A stretch of 36,145 nt of DNA from a virus: IMG/VR virus record IMGVR_UViG_3300045988_006074, positions 1 through 36,145 of that record. One strand, 5' to 3'. This document shows, in pieces, positions 8,262-13,026 of this stretch. The translations under genes were made by a program, and so were the position numbers. The notes under the pieces are model-generated. The model did no database searches and was not told the origin of the DNA. It saw nothing but the letters and a program-made list of their open reading frames with translations. Numbering within the stretch: the stretch's first letter is position 1; each line of letters begins with the position of its first letter.

Positions 8262-8440
8262 CGGCACAGGACACAATATCTTGTGGTGAAGATTTGTTCC
8301 GCTGCCCTGTTCGGTGCGTAAGTGCCGGGCAGGGCTTTTCCCGTTCCTGGCTTTCGTTCCATTCCTCCGGGCTCATGTCATCCTCATCCAGGATGCAGTC
8401 CGGATAAGGTCAGTGGAAGCAGTCCCGGTCGCAGGCCGGT

Positions 8441-8656
8441 TTATTTTGCGTGTGCATGTCGGTCCTCCTTTCTGCGTTGTAAAACTGCGTCAAGCGCTTC
8501 CTCCATTCGCTTCTGCACGCCCTCCGGCTTGCGCTTCCCGTTGAGAAGCATCGAAACATACGGCTTTGTCACGCACATTTCTTTCGCAAGCTCGTCGAAG
8601 GTGACGCGCTCGTTGTGCATCTTACCGACGAGCCGCCCTGTCCATTTTTCCGGCAT
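8441..8656 (-). CDS. Cro-like XRE-type HTH regulator, the first gene of the leftward early operon.
   Basis: MPEKWTGRLVGKMHNERVTFDELAKEMCVTKPYVSMLLNGKRKP. The RBS is AAGGAGG followed by 7 nt. Confidence 0.7.
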   Translation of the reverse strand: MPEKWTGRLVGKMHNERVTFDELAKEMCVTKPYVSMLLNGKRKPEGVQKRMEEALDAVLQRRKEDRHAHAK

Positions 8657-8683
8657 TGTTTCGCCTCCTTTGCGTTTAATATG

Positions 8684-8712
8684 TTGACTGCTGCCCGAAA
8701 ATCTGATATTCT
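8684..8712 (+). promoter_or_regulatory. Sigma-70-type promoter on the plus strand, firing toward the repressor gene.
   Basis: TTGACT (8684..8689), a 17-nt spacer, then TATTCT (8707..8712). Confidence 0.45.
8686..8701. repeat. Left arm of a 16-bp perfect inverted repeat (GACTGCTGCCCGAAAA).
   Basis: Its reverse complement is found at 9041..9056. Both arms are flanked on the outside by GTT. Confidence 0.9.
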
Positions 8713-9040
8713 GTCTGTAGCCCTATGCGGCATTTTTAAGGGGGTGGTCGCATTGACCAAACTTTTGAACTTGCCAGTTCCAGACCAAAGAAACGGCGCG
8801 ATGCGTTAGGGCAAGGAGCAGAACCGGAACTGCTAAAGTGAGCGGCACACAAAGAAGCGTGCTACGAACACGTATCTTTGAGCGCTGCCGCAAAAGAATC
8901 TGCGGCAACGGTGGATCGCACATCCCAAAGCAATGCGGATGCTGCGTGAGATCGGGTGCTCAAAGGTTGCAATGTGTTCTGGTAAACAAATTCCGGTGGA
9001 GCCGTCGTTCGTGTTCGCAGCGCGGGCGGCGGTTTCAAAT

Positions 9041-9056
9041 TTTTCGGGCAGCAGTC
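9041..9056. repeat. Right arm of the 16-bp perfect inverted repeat (TTTTCGGGCAGCAGTC).
   Basis: Exact reverse complement of 8686..8701. Confidence 0.9.
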
Positions 9057-9074
9057 GTTTTTAACCGTGTCTTG

Positions 9075-9103
9075 ATTATACAGCTAGAAAAATTAGCAGT
9101 CAA
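9075..9103 (-). promoter_or_regulatory. Consensus sigma-70-type promoter on the minus strand, a candidate early lytic promoter.
   Basis: The minus strand reads TTGACT (9103..9098), GCTAATTTTTCTAGCTG (17 nt), then TATAAT (9080..9075). Confidence 0.6.
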
Positions 9104-9108
9104 TCTAC

Positions 9109-9122
9109 ATTTTGTACAAAAT
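9109..9122. promoter_or_regulatory. Perfect 14-bp palindrome ATTTTGTACAAAAT, a candidate operator.
   Basis: Read directly. It lies between the -35 of the minus-strand promoter and the RBS of the repressor gene. Confidence 0.4.
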
Positions 9123-9134
9123 AGGAGCGATTTT

Positions 9135-9464
9135 ATGGACGATTTTTACAAGCGCTATTGTGAGCTGTGCGCAAACAAAGGAATGTCCGCCTCTGGGGTA
9201 GCATCTGCTATTGGGCTATCAAATGCCGCCGCCAACGGTTGGAAAAAAGGGAAGCTGCCGAATGATACTACACTAGCCAAGCTTTCGGCTTATTTTGGCG
9301 TCACCGTTGAATATCTCAAGGGCGAAGAAACAAAAAAAGACCCCGCCGGAACCGGCGAGGTCGGGAGTGCGAAAAAAGCGTTGATTAACTTGATTGTTGA
9401 CCTCGACGAGGAGCAGTGCAGGAAGCTGCGCTCGATCATCGAGGAAGCTGTGAATTTGTTATGA
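9135..9464 (+). CDS. XRE-family HTH repressor-like protein (CI-like).
   Basis: An ATG at 9135 lies 7 nt after AGGAG. The protein reads MDDFYKRYCELCANKGMSASGVASAIGLSNAAANGWKKGKLPNDTTLAKLSAYFGVTVEYL. The gene is divergent from the Cro-like gene. Confidence 0.8.
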   Translation: MDDFYKRYCELCANKGMSASGVASAIGLSNAAANGWKKGKLPNDTTLAKLSAYFGVTVEYLKGEETKKDPAGTGEVGSAKKALINLIVDLDEEQCRKLRSIIEEAVNLL

Positions 9465-9799
9465 GACTTACAAAGAATTGCAGATATGTGCTTGACGTGC
9501 TGATTGCAAACCCGCCGCAAACGCAATCGTCTTCATACGACGCCTTTGCATTGATGTACGTTATTGAGAAAGACAGAATTGAAAGCTATGCCGTGTACAT
9601 GGGCGTTTTAAGCACTCTCGCAGAGGGAGGATACATTGAATGGCTTGACGGAAGCACGTCGGAATTCATGCTGACGGAAAAAGGAAAAAACTATAAAGAG
9701 CTAAAATACATGGAGATTCGTTCAGCGGTTATCCACGAGGCTATCGGTTTTGCTCTCGGCGTGGGCGCTGCGATCGTGGTAAAACTCCTTGTAAATTGA
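9461..9799 (+). CDS. Small protein with a winged-helix-like N-terminus and a C-terminal transmembrane helix, co-transcribed with the repressor.
   Basis: The start overlaps the repressor stop as ATGA. The C-terminus reads AIGFALGVGAAIVVKLLVN. The sequence is low in GC. Confidence 0.6.
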   Translation: MRLTKNCRYVLDVLIANPPQTQSSSYDAFALMYVIEKDRIESYAVYMGVLSTLAEGGYIEWLDGSTSEFMLTEKGKNYKELKYMEIRSAVIHEAIGFALGVGAAIVVKLLVN

Positions 9800-10012
9800 A
9801 TTTGGTCGGAAATTATTACACGCACGACCGTTCGCCTTGCAGCCAATCAGCACAAACGGCAAGTCTGTGTCCGGCATAATTGCATTCTCGCACAGTGCGC
9901 AGTGATAATTCAAACACGCTTCTTTGACGTCGGTTTCAATGTTTTGGCATTTCCGCAGTCGATCTTCAAGATAGCGGATACGTTTTTTCAATTCTCGTTT
10001 TGTAGTAAACAT
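9722..10012 (-). CDS. Cys-rich hypothetical protein (96 aa).
   Basis: Strong RBS: AAGGAGG, 5 nt, then ATG. The protein reads ...CLNYHCALCEN...GCKANGRACNNF. The 3' end overlaps the convergent gene 9461..9799 by 78 nt. Confidence 0.6.
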   Translation of the reverse strand: MFTTKRELKKRIRYLEDRLRKCQNIETDVKEACLNYHCALCENAIMPDTDLPFVLIGCKANGRACNNFRPNSIYKEFYHDRSAHAESKTDSLVDNR

Positions 10013-10149
10013 AGCAACCTCCTTATGACATATTCGGCCTGCGCCTCCGTCAGCGCAAGGGCTTTTTCAATCAGGTCCGCGCGGGTTTTCTCCAACATTA
10101 CTGTACGCGATGCTTGTTCTTTTGTCAATGGCGTAACTTTTTCTCTCAC
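9988..10149 (-). CDS. Small helical protein (53 aa, GTG start).
   Basis: AAAGGGGTAGG precedes a GTG at 10149. The protein reads VREKVTPLTKEQASRTVMLEKTRADLIEKALALTEAQAEYVIRRLL... It overlaps the next gene by 25 nt. Confidence 0.45.
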   Translation of the reverse strand: MREKVTPLTKEQASRTVMLEKTRADLIEKALALTEAQAEYVIRRLLCLLQNEN

Positions 10150-10212
10150 GTTCCTACCCCTTTCGTTGAATTGTGACAAAAATAGATCATTAAAATTGTG
10201 GAGTATTACGGT

Positions 10213-10240
10213 TTGTAAAAAACGTATGAAGTGGTAATAT
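10213..10240 (+). promoter_or_regulatory. Candidate promoter for the 10282 gene.
   Basis: TTGTAA (10213..10218), a 16-nt spacer, then TAATAT (10235..10240). Confidence 0.4.
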
Positions 10241-10281
10241 GGATATGTAAATGAAACTAAGCAAAACACGGAGGTACTACA

Positions 10282-10530
10282 ATGGTTTGTCCAGATTGTG
10301 GAAGCGAAAATGTAACAATTTCTATGGAACAGGTTGCAAGCAAAACAAAGAAGCACGGAAACGGATTTGGTGGTCATATGAATAACGCTGCAAGGGGCGT
10401 CACTGCTATGTGTACCCTCGGTATGTCCAACCTTTTTTGGAAAAAGAGTAAAGGAACCGAAAAAACGAAAATCAGGAGCGCCAAAATATGCCTGTGCCAA
10501 AACTGCGGAAATTCCTGGGAAATCGAATGA
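10282..10530 (+). CDS. Zinc-ribbon protein (82 aa).
   Basis: MVCPDCGSENV...ICLCQNCGNSWEIE. The RBS is ACGGAGG. The sequence is low in GC. Confidence 0.6.
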   Translation: MVCPDCGSENVTISMEQVASKTKKHGNGFGGHMNNAARGVTAMCTLGMSNLFWKKSKGTEKTKIRSAKICLCQNCGNSWEIE

Positions 10531-10571
10531 TGCGCACAAAACATACCGTATTATTACTAATGTAATTAGCT

Positions 10572-10745
10572 CTAATGTAAGATTTTTTTCTGCTCCTGCT
10601 TCCCACCAATATCCGCGACACAAGAGAACAGCAGCGGGCAGCCCTTGACGTAATCCAAAGAAAAGCTATGAAGGTCCGTTAACGTAATCCCGTCGATGGT
10701 GATGCTCACCTTGTTGCCGTCGGCAATAATCTGAATATATTGCAT
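10572..10745 (-). CDS. Small hypothetical protein (57 aa).
   Basis: An ATG at 10745 lies 5 nt after AAGGAGGTG. Confidence 0.55.
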   Translation of the reverse strand: MQYIQIIADGNKVSITIDGITLTDLHSFSLDYVKGCPLLFSCVADIGGKQEQKKILH

Positions 10746-10881
10746 GATGTCACCTCCTTGCATCATTACTCTTCAGTCACGAGACTACTACTGAAACGCG
10801 ACAATCTCAATACGCAAGTATGCAAAAGGCAAACCAAATGTACGCTGTACAGTCGCCATAAAAAATGCTGCACAAAAGGGA

Positions 10882-11289
10882 GTGCTTGTTACGACGGTTC
10901 AGGATATTATTTTTGGTATTATTGCACAAAAAGAGGCAACCGGCATGACAAACCAGCAGATTGCGGATTCAGCGAAGGTATCAAAGACAACCGTTGACCG
11001 ATTGCTGCGAAACGACCCAGGAACCAGCCCAAATGCGCAGACGCTTATCGATGTAGCTAATACAGTCGGGTATCAAATCGGAGGCGCCGAACCACACAGC
11101 GAGGTGCGGGAAATCTACGAGGAGCAAATCAAGCAAACAGAAGCGCATTACAACAGAATACTTACACTGCAAAATCGGTGGCTGCGCTTCGCTGTTATTC
11201 TCTGCCTGATCTTAATCGTCTTTGTCATAGCAATGCTTCTATTTGATATGACGCACCCAGACACAGGCTGGATAACAGACAATAGTTGA
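10882..11289 (+). CDS. HTH (XRE-like) protein with a C-terminal transmembrane anchor.
   Basis: GMTNQQIADSAKVSKTTVDRLLRND, followed by RWLRFAVILCLILIVFVIAMLLF. The start is ambiguous: GTG at 10882, or ATG at 10945 with an AAAGAGG RBS. Confidence 0.65.
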   Translation: MLVTTVQDIIFGIIAQKEATGMTNQQIADSAKVSKTTVDRLLRNDPGTSPNAQTLIDVANTVGYQIGGAEPHSEVREIYEEQIKQTEAHYNRILTLQNRWLRFAVILCLILIVFVIAMLLFDMTHPDTGWITDNS

Positions 11290-11342
11290 TAATGCGGGGG
11301 TATCAGCGAAAGCCGATACCCCTTTTTTGCAGGAGGAAAAAT

Positions 11343-12419
11343 ATGGGATGTATCAAATGCGGTCGAGACATTCCCGACGGGGCCATGTTCTGCCCGTGGT
11401 GCGGAAAAAAACAGGTGCAAGAAAAGCGGAAGGCCCTCAAACGAGCAAACGGGACAGGCACGGTTTACAAGCTGTCAGGCCGTCGCAGCCGTCCGTGGGT
11501 AGCGGCTAAAAACAAGATTGTCATTGGGTATTACGCGAAGAAAACAGAGGCCATGGAAGCCATAGAGCGCCTGGCTGGTAGATCAATCTCGGAACGGTAC
11601 AATATGACATTCGAGGAGGTATTTCAGGAATGGAAAGCGGAACACTTCCGGGAAATTGGAGAAAAGAGCATTGCCGCATATGAAAACGCTTACGCAAAAA
11701 GCAAGGAGCTCTATGGTAGGCAGTTTCGCTCCCTGCGCGTGAAGGACTTCCAGTCAATTATTGATAACAACAAAGCTGCCAAGTCACGCTCTGCACAAGC
11801 CAAATACAAGCATCTGTTTGTGCAACTATCAGAGTGGGCCGTGCGCGAGGAGGCTGCCACGACAAACTACGCCAGATTTGTGAAGCTAGACGGTGAAAAG
11901 CCGAAAGAAAAAGCTGTGTTTACAGATTCAGATATAAAAAAGATGGAAGCAGCCGGAACACCCGCGGCAAAACTCACCCTCATGCTGATTTACACCGGGA
12001 TGCGCATCGGCGAAATGTTTTCCCTGCCGCTTTCCGGATATCATGAATCCTATGTTATCGGCGGCGAAAAAACAGAAGCGGGCCGAAATCGAGTCATACC
12101 GATCCGCCCAGAGGGGCGTGCCTACTTTGCAGAGATCGCAGCTAGAGCAGATGGTGATCTTCTGATTTCCGGGTATGCCGGGCAAAAAGTAGCTGAAAAC
12201 TTCCGGAAGCGAGATTATTACCCGATGTTGGAGCAGCTCGGTATTGAAAAAAAGCCACCACACGCAACGCGTCACACCTTCGCAAGCTGGGCCGTCTCCG
12301 CCGGGATCAGACCGGAAATGCTGCAGAAAATTCTTGGTCACTCAAACTATGATACAACAGCAGATATATACGTTCACGCAAATATTGATCAGCTTGTGGA
12401 AGAGGTAGAAGCGCACTGA
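11343..12419 (+). CDS. int: Tyrosine integrase with an N-terminal zinc ribbon and an arm-type DNA-binding domain.
   Basis: An ATG at 11343 follows GGAGG. The protein reads MGCIKCGRDIPDGAMFCPWCG; TGTVYKLSGRRSRPWVAAK...; GMRIGEMFSL; HATRHTFASWAV; LGHSNYDTTADIYVH. Confidence 0.9.
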   Translation: MGCIKCGRDIPDGAMFCPWCGKKQVQEKRKALKRANGTGTVYKLSGRRSRPWVAAKNKIVIGYYAKKTEAMEAIERLAGRSISERYNMTFEEVFQEWKAEHFREIGEKSIAAYENAYAKSKELYGRQFRSLRVKDFQSIIDNNKAAKSRSAQAKYKHLFVQLSEWAVREEAATTNYARFVKLDGEKPKEKAVFTDSDIKKMEAAGTPAAKLTLMLIYTGMRIGEMFSLPLSGYHESYVIGGEKTEAGRNRVIPIRPEGRAYFAEIAARADGDLLISGYAGQKVAENFRKRDYYPMLEQLGIEKKPPHATRHTFASWAVSAGIRPEMLQKILGHSNYDTTADIYVHANIDQLVEEVEAH

Positions 12420-12451
12420 CGCAGACATTTTTTTCATGTATGAAGCCGCAT

Positions 12452-12472
12452 TGTTAGCAACGTGTTAGTAAC
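12452..12472 (+). repeat. Candidate integrase arm-type sites, left pair: TGTTAGCAAC-G-TGTTAGTAAC.
   Basis: The same 10-mers recur at 12685..12705 in swapped order. Confidence 0.6.
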
Positions 12473-12596
12473 CGAAGTAGAACGTCGTGCACTCTGGAAA
12501 CTTTTTAAACGTGCGCAATTCGGAAATTCCCCTAAATTCCATTGCATTTCAAACTATAATGTTTATTTTTTTCATCTCGTCAAATTCACATCAGCA

Positions 12597-12628
12597 GGTC
12601 GCCGGTTCGAGTCCGGCCAGTAGCTCCA
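12597..12628 (+). other. A tRNA 3' fragment (T-arm, 3' acceptor strand and CCA), the likely attP core.
   Basis: GGTC-GCCGG-TTCGAGT-CCGGC-CAGTAGC-T-CCA. No matching 5' acceptor strand (GCTACTG) is found upstream, so this is not a complete tRNA. Confidence 0.7.
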
Positions 12629-12667
12629 AAAAATCCTTGAAAACATCGCGTTTTCAAGGATTTTTTA
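12628..12667. terminator. Rho-independent terminator, bidirectional in appearance.
   Basis: A perfect 14-bp stem, AAATCCTTGAAAAC / GTTTTCAAGGATTT, with loop ATCGC. It is flanked by an A-run and a T-run. Confidence 0.8.
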
Positions 12668-12684
12668 TGTGGTCTCGCCTATTT

Positions 12685-12705
12685 TGTTAGTAACGTGTTA
12701 GCAAC
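12685..12705 (+). repeat. Candidate integrase arm-type sites, right pair: TGTTAGTAAC-G-TGTTAGCAAC.
   Basis: Direct-orientation copies of the 12452..12472 motifs. Confidence 0.6.
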
Positions 12706-12711
12706 TAAGGG

Positions 12712-13026
12712 TTAAGCGTTGCCAAGCCTGACAAGAACAGAATTATACGCCACAGGGTTCACAACTCGAAGCACATCCATTAACTCATCAATAATGGACC
12801 ATGCCTTTACGCTGTCTACCCCAGATACAGCAAGCAAAAACTCGCTTTCTCCATCAATAGACACCGGCTGTGGTTCGTAAACCTCCGAGTTTGAACAGAG
12901 CCGTTTGTAAATCATCGCAGCATAGAGAGGGGCCAGCCGTTCCATCGTCGCATAAGATGTGTCGCGACTCGCCTCCATGTTGATGATTTCTTTTTCAATT
13001 TCGTCAAAGTCAATCATATCGCTCAC
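12712..13026 (-). CDS. Hypothetical acidic protein, the last gene of the accessory cluster.
   Basis: The ORF overlaps the upstream stop. The start is GTG at 13026 or ATG at 13017. Confidence 0.6.
   Translation of the reverse strand: MSDMIDFDEIEKEIINMEASRDTSYATMERLAPLYAAMIYKRLCSNSEVYEPQPVSIDGESEFLLAVSGVDSVKAWSIIDELMDVLRVVNPVAYNSVLVRLGNA

Follow-up and report, generated by a model that had tools for sequence, protein, structure and literature searches.

A FuFi-1 RNA gene between the cro-like and repressor-like genes of a phage, facing a predicted leftward promoter

What lies in the 478 nucleotides (nt) between the divergent cro-like and repressor-like genes of the IMG/VR virus record IMGVR_UViG_3300045988_006074, and which strand does it serve? 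An earlier interpretation made from the letters of this 36,145-nt stretch (positions 1 to 36,145 of the record, hereafter the window), which we call the sequence-only reading, saw here a lysis-lysogeny switch with a structured minus-strand leader of about 370 nt ahead of cro. Our analysis indicates that the gap is almost certainly an independent plus-strand gene for an RNA of the FuFi-1 family (Rfam RF02986), and that this RNA is the structured region of the window. The gene consists of its own promoter, a conserved 5' hairpin, the FuFi-1 core with an expansion, and a terminator reaching to about position 9045 (Table 1). FuFi-1 is here a new example of an already known RNA family, and it is the context that is newly informative.

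Identity and strand of the structured RNA

A search of Rfam, which the sequence-only reading had proposed, was run on the whole window and gave FuFi-1 on the plus strand as its sole match. The match spans the full model (model positions 1-175) and scores 87.6 bits against a gathering score of 59.6 (E = 1.5e-17, cmscan), which places the RNA in the family over the entire length of the model; an 'Erse' match of 16.5 bits, against a gathering score of 138, was disregarded. The conserved elements of the family are found in the window as the GCAGAACC..AACUGC hairpin and the GGUAAACAAAUU segment, and the 3' end is a Rho-independent terminator with a 19-pair stem followed by a T-rich tract. The known occurrence of the family in Firmicutes, Fusobacteria and phages is matched by the gut-sample IMG/VR viral contigs and the 43 Clostridia genomes with the 5'-hairpin motif described below. 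The copy in the window differs from the family description in the expansion of about 75 nt, three-way in shape, that occupies the loop of one hairpin, in the conserved 5' hairpin that precedes the modelled part, and in the 16-bp inverted repeat that brackets the gene.

FuFi-1 is one of four motifs grouped by Weinberg et al. 2017, all of them highly conserved, ending in a Rho-independent terminator and of unknown function, which were judged unlikely to be riboswitches or self-cleaving ribozymes and in which the discoverers saw signs of a sophisticated biochemical function (PMC5737381). The main text of that study is silent on a switch context like the present one (PMC5737381), and no later paper on FuFi-1 was found in the searchable literature. 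Within the family, a candidate loop-tail pseudoknot joins CCNNA with a UNNGG that follows GGUAAACAAA (CCGGA/UCCGG in the window). Loop variants occur with matching tails, namely AA with TTTGG (30 cases), AG with TCTGG and AC with TGTGG, in a covariation count that is incomplete because the motif search missed many tails. A 9-nt pairing of the GUAAACAAA segment of FuFi-1 with the leader of the repressor promoter in the related locus L008 was judged by eye to be due to chance, as it is lost in groups B and D of the relatives and deleted in the window.

The inner helix (8874-8886 with 8955-8967) and the two hairpins that it encloses, which the sequence-only reading had recognized in part as a 10-bp helix, are present in the minimum-free-energy fold and show compensatory and wobble changes in relatives. 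The helices are therefore real, but what had looked like a three-way junction in a cro leader is a plus-strand expansion inserted in one FuFi-1 hairpin. The strand was examined in an alignment of the predicted transcript (8719..9045) and the four relatives nearest to it (93-99% identical; 4 distinct sequences), in which pairs were counted for the plus fold and for the mirrored fold on the minus strand; since the structure under test is the window's own plus-strand fold, invariant pairs favour the plus strand, and it is the behaviour of substitutions in the relatives that is independent of this choice. Standard pairs filled 98.6% of the cells on the plus strand and 81.9% on the mirrored minus strand. 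One-sided substitutions kept their pair, as G.U, in 11 of 11 cases on the plus strand versus 0 of 11 on the minus strand, and three pairs were altered on both sides. Among the four close relatives the substitutions are concentrated in the expansion, and the 5' hairpin and the core are invariant. The annotated strand of RF02986 is in this way backed by substitutions, across only 4 distinct sequences.

Because the substitutions keep plus-strand pairs only, the structured RNA is the plus-strand FuFi-1 rather than a leader of cro. The covariation that had been called for in related phages thus exists for the inner helices, on the strand opposite to the one expected, and the claim of a structured non-coding RNA holds for the region and fails for its strand. 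The idea that the whole domain of about 370 nt, including the inner junction, is a regulatory minus-strand leader of the cro mRNA draws some support from the stable fold of that leader (z-score -5.1) and from the fact that minus-strand RNA alone contains both arms of the inverted repeat, but it would have to accommodate a family match confined to the plus strand, a mirrored structure that loses every G.U pair and tolerates no one-sided substitution, and a unit with its own plus-strand promoter and terminator. We consider it highly improbable. It is contradicted for the internal helices; the outer helix formed by the arms is by itself viable and is taken up in the explanation that we favour below.

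Table 1. Features of the FuFi-1 gene and its surroundings (positions in the window; a point in the strand column marks features given without a strand).
Feature	Position	Strand	Evidence
FuFi-1 promoter P1, TTGACT-17-TATTCT, TG at 8704-8705; predicted start about 8719	8684..8712	+	promoter scan; start inferred
Conserved 5' hairpin, three stems, outside the Rfam model	8729..8775	+	per-sequence folds, column counts
FuFi-1 RNA core	8796..9035	+	cmscan, Rfam RF02986
Lineage-specific expansion in the loop of a FuFi-1 hairpin	8874..8967	+	insertion in cmscan alignment; helices 8-11 of pair count
FuFi-1 intrinsic terminator, 19-pair stem then interrupted U tract TTTCAAATTTTT	8997..9045 (stem 8997-9037)	+	terminator scan; within Rfam model
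Inverted repeat, left arm, overlapping P1 -35 and spacer	8686..8701	.	exact repeat search; co-varies in relatives
Inverted repeat, right arm, beginning inside the terminator U tract	9041..9056	.	exact repeat search; outer edge 9056/9057 is a mosaic breakpoint versus L030/L031
Leftward near-consensus promoter, TTGACT-17-TATAAT, presumed lytic; predicted start about 9068	9075..9103	-	promoter scan; kept with the repressor module in L007-L009
Palindrome ATTTTG-TA-CAAAAT (ATTTTGTACAAAAT), operator candidate of the repressor module, between the leftward promoter and the repressor ribosome-binding site (RBS)	9109..9122	.	exact, unique in window
Cro-like first gene of the leftward (lytic-direction) operon, 71 aa	8441..8656	-	Pfam HTH_3, E = 9.7e-5
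Repressor-like HTH gene, 109 aa	9135..9464	+	Pfam HTH_3, 31 bits

A conserved 5' hairpin and a conserved position

The hairpin upstream of the core is built of three stems: a (GGCA/UGCC), b (AAGGGGG, resembling a Shine-Dalgarno (SD) sequence, with CUUUU) and c (GGUC/GACC). RNAalifold on MAFFT alignments returned no structure, as the 5' strand was misaligned, and was replaced by folds of the single sequences together with column counts. In the window a UUG at 8753-8755 lies in the loop and opens a pseudo-open reading frame (pseudo-ORF), MTKLLNLPVPDQRNGAMR, that runs to a stop at 8807-8809. An ORF-like motif of this kind (SD-like AAGGAGG, then UUG, AUG or GUG, and codons for MTKLLxLPxP) is kept in 69 of 98 FuFi-1 segments, representing 35 distinct sequences, and invites the view that the element is a translated mini-ORF, a leader peptide or small protein carried with FuFi-1 on one mRNA. 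Such a view could cite the strong SD-like AAGGAGG 5-9 nt ahead of the start codon and the L169 version, which lacks the TTG and yet has an in-frame ATG just upstream. The details argue for RNA structure. The three-stem hairpin is common to all 35 versions, with the SD-like bases paired, and its stems co-vary, GGCAA/UUGCC being replaced by GAGCAA/UUGCUC in L140, by GGGCGAG/CUCGCCC in L144 and by GGCAU/AUGCC in L115 and L185. The leucine codons, always CTT/TTT TTG, never change synonymously, and the seemingly synonymous variation at the third position of the proline codon is base-pair covariation, as this base pairs with a co-varying 5' base. The start codon is TTG in 24 of the 35, and the frame, 10 to 36 codons long, is not conserved past codon 10. 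Translation of this element is thus very unlikely. The sequence-only reading had expected a conserved small ORF in the region to change the whole picture; an ORF-like motif is indeed kept, but the co-varying hairpin explains it.

The motif TTGACCAAACTTTTGANNTTGCC from this hairpin is present in 43 species-representative genomes, where about 0.3 would be expected by chance. Nearly all are Clostridia (Lachnospiraceae, Oscillospiraceae, Acutalibacteraceae, Ruminococcus, Peptostreptococcaceae), save one unclassified metagenome-assembled genome, and in 15 of the 18 that were scanned the motif is followed immediately by a FuFi-1 match on its own strand. Cultured hosts in this set include Bilifractor porci, Jingyaoa shaoxingensis, Ruminococcoides intestinihominis and Lachnospiraceae bacterium 10-1. 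Since the hairpin motif is conserved and FuFi-1 follows directly, the FuFi-1 transcript extends 5' beyond the Rfam model. As a separate observation, the first bases of the transcript (AGCCCU / AUGCC; 8719-8735 in the window, with equivalents elsewhere) can pair with the 5' strand of stem a (GGCA), and all three 5'-end elements co-vary in L140 and L144, which suggests two mutually exclusive pairings.

The position of FuFi-1 in the switch is conserved as well. Searches with the repressor and Cro proteins yielded 79 IMG/VR loci, and among the 38 centred on the repressor FuFi-1 was found in 31 (25 at the gathering score, 6 just below it with E <=3e-9), always between the two genes, on the repressor strand and upstream of the repressor. 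A FuFi-1 core pattern retrieved 120 more viral stretches, forming 43 clusters at 90% identity. In 25 of 42 clusters, by a crude procedure for picking ORFs, the first sizeable one downstream on the same strand encodes a Cro/C1-type HTH protein; 12 downstream ORFs match Phage_CI_repr and 3 carry Peptidase_S24, and upstream the divergent ORF frequently codes for an HTH, Rha or antirepressor protein. Bacterial genomes, taken as an independent set, have a Cro/C1-type HTH gene downstream in 18 of 36 cases, and six of these include Peptidase_S24. When 25 kb of the window was compared with GenBank phages by megablast, no match appeared; the sole distant hit, Flavonifractor phage Chenonceau, is confined to the cro gene, with no FuFi-1 in the 5 kb examined.

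Against these relatives the region, which had been called oversized, is in fact short: its 478 nt compare with mostly 593-792 nt (range 532-1516) in FuFi-1-bearing relatives and with 298-437 nt in relatives without FuFi-1. In L007 (2701-3000) the terminator and the right arm are retained in an intergenic region of only 300 nt. Other RNAs were seen in the vicinity of FuFi-1 elsewhere. A skipping-rope RNA (RF02924, 59-63 bits), another orphan motif of the same 2017 study, is encoded some 3.1 kb past the repressor start in several related phages (about 6163-6243 in L003, L004, L010, L011, L020, L023 and L024; 3544-3614 in L013), with none in the window, and a 6A RNA (RF02925, 44.8 bits; L127 1551-1601) and a Pistol ribozyme (RF02679, 42.3 bits; L144 3046-3106) were found within about 1 kb of FuFi-1 in two other phage contigs. 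In some bacterial genomes tRNA genes are located near FuFi-1, at no more than about 200 nt in L222 (1135-1388) and L227 (2639-2722) and about 3 kb away in L226 (688-1042); these sites may be prophage ends.

Predicted facing promoters, flanking genes and the inverted repeat

The FuFi-1 gene has a predicted promoter, P1, with 9 of 12 consensus positions and the TG of an extended -10, and is faced by a predicted leftward promoter with 11 of 12 (-10 perfect, -35 5/6). Both had been located by the sequence-only reading, as had the 9-mer TTGACTGCT that they have in common; its description of the leftward one as perfect was slightly overstated. Promoter-like sites number 3 in 8300..9500, where shuffled sequences give 0.9. 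A P1-like -35/-10 layout beside the start of the lytic gene is kept in all related groups; of 44 sequences, the 43 FuFi-1 phage clusters and the window, 19 agree with the consensus at 10 or more of 12 positions. Downstream of FuFi-1, a minus-strand promoter with at least 10 of 12 positions that points back across the RNA gene is present in 34 of the 44 viral sequences and 26 of 35 genome loci; the plus-strand control for the same stretch gave 16 of 35 and is not a clean null, because the relatives have a real second rightward promoter there. The convergent promoters thus very probably form a conserved module of the switch, as far as consensus matches can tell, and the layout, with predicted lytic and lysogenic promoters facing each other between the regulators as in the 186/P2 type, fits the suggestion of antisense action or transcriptional interference that had been made for the window. 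FuFi-1 would then be the lysogeny-direction (rightward) countertranscript of the switch.

The genes on either side are small HTH_3 regulators, the Cro-like one borderline at 22.8 bits against a cut-off of 23, with a GGAGG RBS at 8664..8668 (minus strand) and 96-100% protein identity in L039-L042. A tyrosine integrase gene lies 2 kb to the right of the switch; these genes together identify a temperate-phage immunity region. A second HTH ORF (10882-11289) overlaps by 4 nt the start of the integrase gene (11286-12419), whose product has an N-terminal zinc-ribbon motif. The rightward lysogeny module (9001-13000) has a GC content of 0.43-0.49, versus about 0.52-0.61 elsewhere in the window, and its GC and AT skews flip sign.

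Between the FuFi-1 terminator and the repressor start, the promoter scan detected no plus-strand promoter. The window lacks a 105-nt segment to the right of the right arm that L007, L008, L009 and L030 contain and that carries TTGCAA-17-TACTAT, a second rightward promoter and presumably the repressor's own; it also lacks a 25-nt segment with GTTAA-N6-TAAC that is found in L007-L009, which share its repressor module. In the comparison of 9057-9108 with L007, L008 and L009, the phage of the window may be an immunity-region deletion variant. Since this promoter is lost, we infer that repressor mRNA would come from read-through of the FuFi-1 terminator, whose U tract is interrupted. In the window a structured leader and terminator thus precede the repressor gene with no detected promoter in between, as a riboswitch or attenuator would require; most relatives have a second promoter at this place. 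The 14-bp palindrome ahead of the repressor gene, rightly described before as exact, remains an operator candidate: it is kept as ATTTTG-CA-CAAAAT in L007-L009, and further copies of ATTTTG-NN-CAAAAT amounted to chance-level matches only.

The inverted repeat that brackets the gene had also been placed correctly; its arms are exact (16/16), and the window contains no additional copy at fewer than 3 mismatches. Relatives have the same bracket: the left arm overlies the -35 of the FuFi-1 promoter and the beginning of its spacer, and the right arm starts in the U tract. Among the 43 viral clusters, a significant repeat occupies this position in about a dozen, with arms of 16-27 nt and differing sequences (a TTGACTGCGGCGGG family; in L138, GTAGTCATTGACAAGCCGCCCCGGA; in L185, a perfect 27-mer). 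Conservation of arm sequence is partly explained by the -35, which fixes the outer end of the left arm, and the U tract, which fixes the inner end of the right. The arms co-vary: among near-identical phages one position is C in both or T in both (12 and 11 loci) and another is G in both (16 loci) or A in both (3 loci), with a 3-locus intermediate that is U.G on minus-strand RNA, and the window's group differs from the common arm family by three transversions, each matched in the opposite arm. Single mismatches read as G.U on minus-strand RNA in 7-11 cases versus 2 on plus, which is suggestive, not decisive. Both predicted folds of the minus leader, minimum-free-energy and centroid, contain the pairing of the arms, and in the former the helix comprises the 16 bp and, past a one-base bulge, 5 more pairs. 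Of the possibilities that had been put forward for the repeat, pairing within minus-strand RNA, which alone holds both arms, is the one best backed by these comparisons. That the arms pair in the leftward cro leader has, in our estimate, about as much for it as against it.

Three other accounts of the arms can be set beside this one. If they were bound as DNA by a regulatory protein, be it Cro, the repressor or some further factor, one arm would block the -35 of the FuFi-1 promoter and the other would act upstream of the repressor promoter or as a loop anchor. The left arm does overlie the P1 -35 and spacer, in relatives the right arm stops about 8 nt short of the -35 that belongs to the second rightward promoter, the TTGACTGCGGCGGG arm family is conserved across many phages, and L007 retains the right arm without the left. 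However, the arms are not palindromic and do not follow a protein: one arm family occurs beside at least 3 unrelated first lytic-side proteins, and the window and L008 have different arms although the DNA-binding N-terminal domain of the repressor is 97% identical. The single-base variants that appear in both arms together among near-identical phages are unneeded for binding, and arms with 25-27 perfect bases (L138, L185) exceed the need of a protein site. Arms that track neither the Cro family nor the repressor module also speak against the distant operators for repressor looping that had been considered earlier, and we regard protein sites of any kind as improbable.

A MITE-like insertion, in which 8686..9056 would be a mobile or exchangeable cassette with terminal inverted repeats, had been suggested from the GTT beside both arms, and the relatives provide further observations in this direction. 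Groups C and D share flanks and arms and have very different FuFi-1 versions between them. In L036 (2564-3000) and L037 a promoter, a terminator and arms of the same family surround a structured RNA of about 150 nt (z = -3.0) that has no Rfam match and is not FuFi-1, an example of how other RNAs may occupy the space between the arms, and homology between the window and L030/L031 breaks exactly at the outer edge of the right arm. But the GTT flanks are confined to the window, no target-site duplication is seen in relatives (tgt/ttt in L157, tgg/ttt in L082), the element is single-copy in the window with no transposase present, its site and orientation are constant in dozens of phages, and the ends of the L007 deletion lie off the arms. 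Homologous recombination at short conserved sequences explains the exchange equally well, and we read the cassette behaviour as such recombination, not transposition; a mobile element is thus quite unlikely. Still less probable, and the least so of all the alternatives, is an 'inverton', an invertible promoter/terminator cassette that would flip the FuFi-1 unit. In several clusters the arms hold the full -35, so that inversion would rejoin the -10 and the RNA gene to an equivalent -35, and a tyrosine recombinase gene is 2 kb away; yet all 58 junctions of an arm with the inner right side in viral and metagenome contigs (assemblies, not reads) had the normal outer flank, with 0 inverted, and the orientation of FuFi-1 is uniform in all related loci.

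A possible role in the lysis-lysogeny decision

Taking the evidence together we lean, with reserve, towards an explanation in which the FuFi-1 gene is part of a convergent switch module that combines interference or antisense action, an arm clamp and terminator read-through. The leftward transcript from the promoter at 9103-9075 would cross the whole FuFi-1 gene in antisense before reaching cro, firing of this promoter and of the FuFi-1 promoter would interfere mutually, and FuFi-1 RNA could form a duplex with the cro leader. In that leader the arms bracket exactly the stretch complementary to FuFi-1, and by pairing they would clamp a domain that ends 17 nt before the cro RBS; the clamp and the FuFi-1:leader duplex of roughly 325 bp would be mutually exclusive. 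In the phage of the window, read-through of the FuFi-1 terminator would supply the repressor mRNA. The part of this explanation in which the lytic transcript is the target of FuFi-1, through interference, antisense pairing or both, is plausible and, in our view, a little short of probable.

Several observations weigh against the explanation. A significant repeat was found in only 3 of 35 genome loci, so the arms are not essential to FuFi-1 and are absent from most loci; an intermediate in L024 is a mismatch on minus-strand RNA, and the wobble bias could stem from a strand-specific mutation bias. The promoters and start sites are consensus matches only. L007 lacks the FuFi-1 promoter, 5' hairpin and core and yet keeps the switch genes, and some FuFi-1 copies in bacterial genomes adjoin tRNA genes with no obvious switch. 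Finally, the sequence of FuFi-1 and its loop-tail pseudoknot are kept across phages with unrelated lytic genes, and because a pure antisense RNA would not need such conservation, the core probably also binds a conserved partner.

The last point leads to the main alternative, in which FuFi-1 is mainly a trans-acting RNA or a sensor whose fold has a small ligand or a protein, of host or phage origin, as its partner, possibly with riboswitch-like gating of its own terminator and of read-through into the repressor, the antisense geometry being secondary. It is favoured by the high conservation of the core sequence and the pseudoknot (with the incomplete count noted above) in diverse phages and Clostridia genomes, by the features of sophisticated function noted by the discoverers (PMC5737381), by the place of the RNA and its terminator upstream of the repressor on the same strand, and by the window having no other detectable repressor promoter. 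Most relatives, however, have a separate repressor promoter after the terminator, the original study thought riboswitch function improbable as the motif is rarely in 5' UTRs (PMC5737381), no ligand or partner is known, and the facing promoter and the repeat arms are left unexplained. We consider a role mainly of this kind rather unlikely, though clearly worth more weight than the readings dismissed above, and it is compatible with the interference and antisense explanation.

Comparable arrangements are known for parts of this module. Coliphages 186 (pR/pL) and P2 (Pe/Pc) have face-to-face lytic and lysogenic promoters (PMC5001618). The predicted lytic and lysogenic promoters converge here too, so that interference can contribute to the decision, but the overlap between these predicted promoters is about 350 nt and holds a complete terminated structured RNA gene. 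In phage 186 the promoters overlap by 62 bp. The prgQ/prgX region of pCF10 has convergent promoters, the Anti-Q countertranscript and peptide signalling. It resembles the present locus in its terminated repressor-side small RNA, which is antisense to the opposing leader and whose read-through gives the repressor mRNA, and differs in that here there is no peptide signalling, the repressor is a small XRE-type HTH protein, and FuFi-1 is far more conserved and structured than Anti-Q. The CI RNA of P4 and the c4 antisense RNA of P1/P7 are RNA immunity factors that act on defined short targets. FuFi-1 is likewise a phage small RNA in an immunity region that could restrain lytic expression; the defined short targets are known for those RNAs, and there is no kinship in sequence or structure. 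Long-range pairing of RNA ends is familiar from the rRNA processing stalks cut by RNase III and from the fold-back (fbi) element of hok mRNA, where distant complementary segments close a large RNA domain as proposed for the arms, with the difference that the predicted helix here encloses the antisense of another gene.

The region should accordingly be labelled as a FuFi-1 gene rather than as an oversized untranslated leader, and a known RNA gains a co-varying 5' hairpin as an unannotated 5' domain. The co-varying long-range helix in the opposing transcript offers a simple handle for mutate-and-restore tests. FuFi-1, an orphan since its description in 2017 as a widespread motif, now has a recurrent place in the gap that separates cro-like from cI-like genes: it is encoded on the strand of the repressor, opposite to the early lytic leader, and faces a near-consensus promoter, which gives it a concrete and testable candidate role. 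More tentatively, and as a conjecture that we hold less likely than its opposite, FuFi-1 might be a general RNA part of the lysis-lysogeny switch in temperate phages of Clostridia, a lysogeny-side countertranscript nested in the early lytic leader, whose hybridisation to the cro leader, in competition with the clamp helix there, would set lytic expression and whose fold may also sense a host factor.

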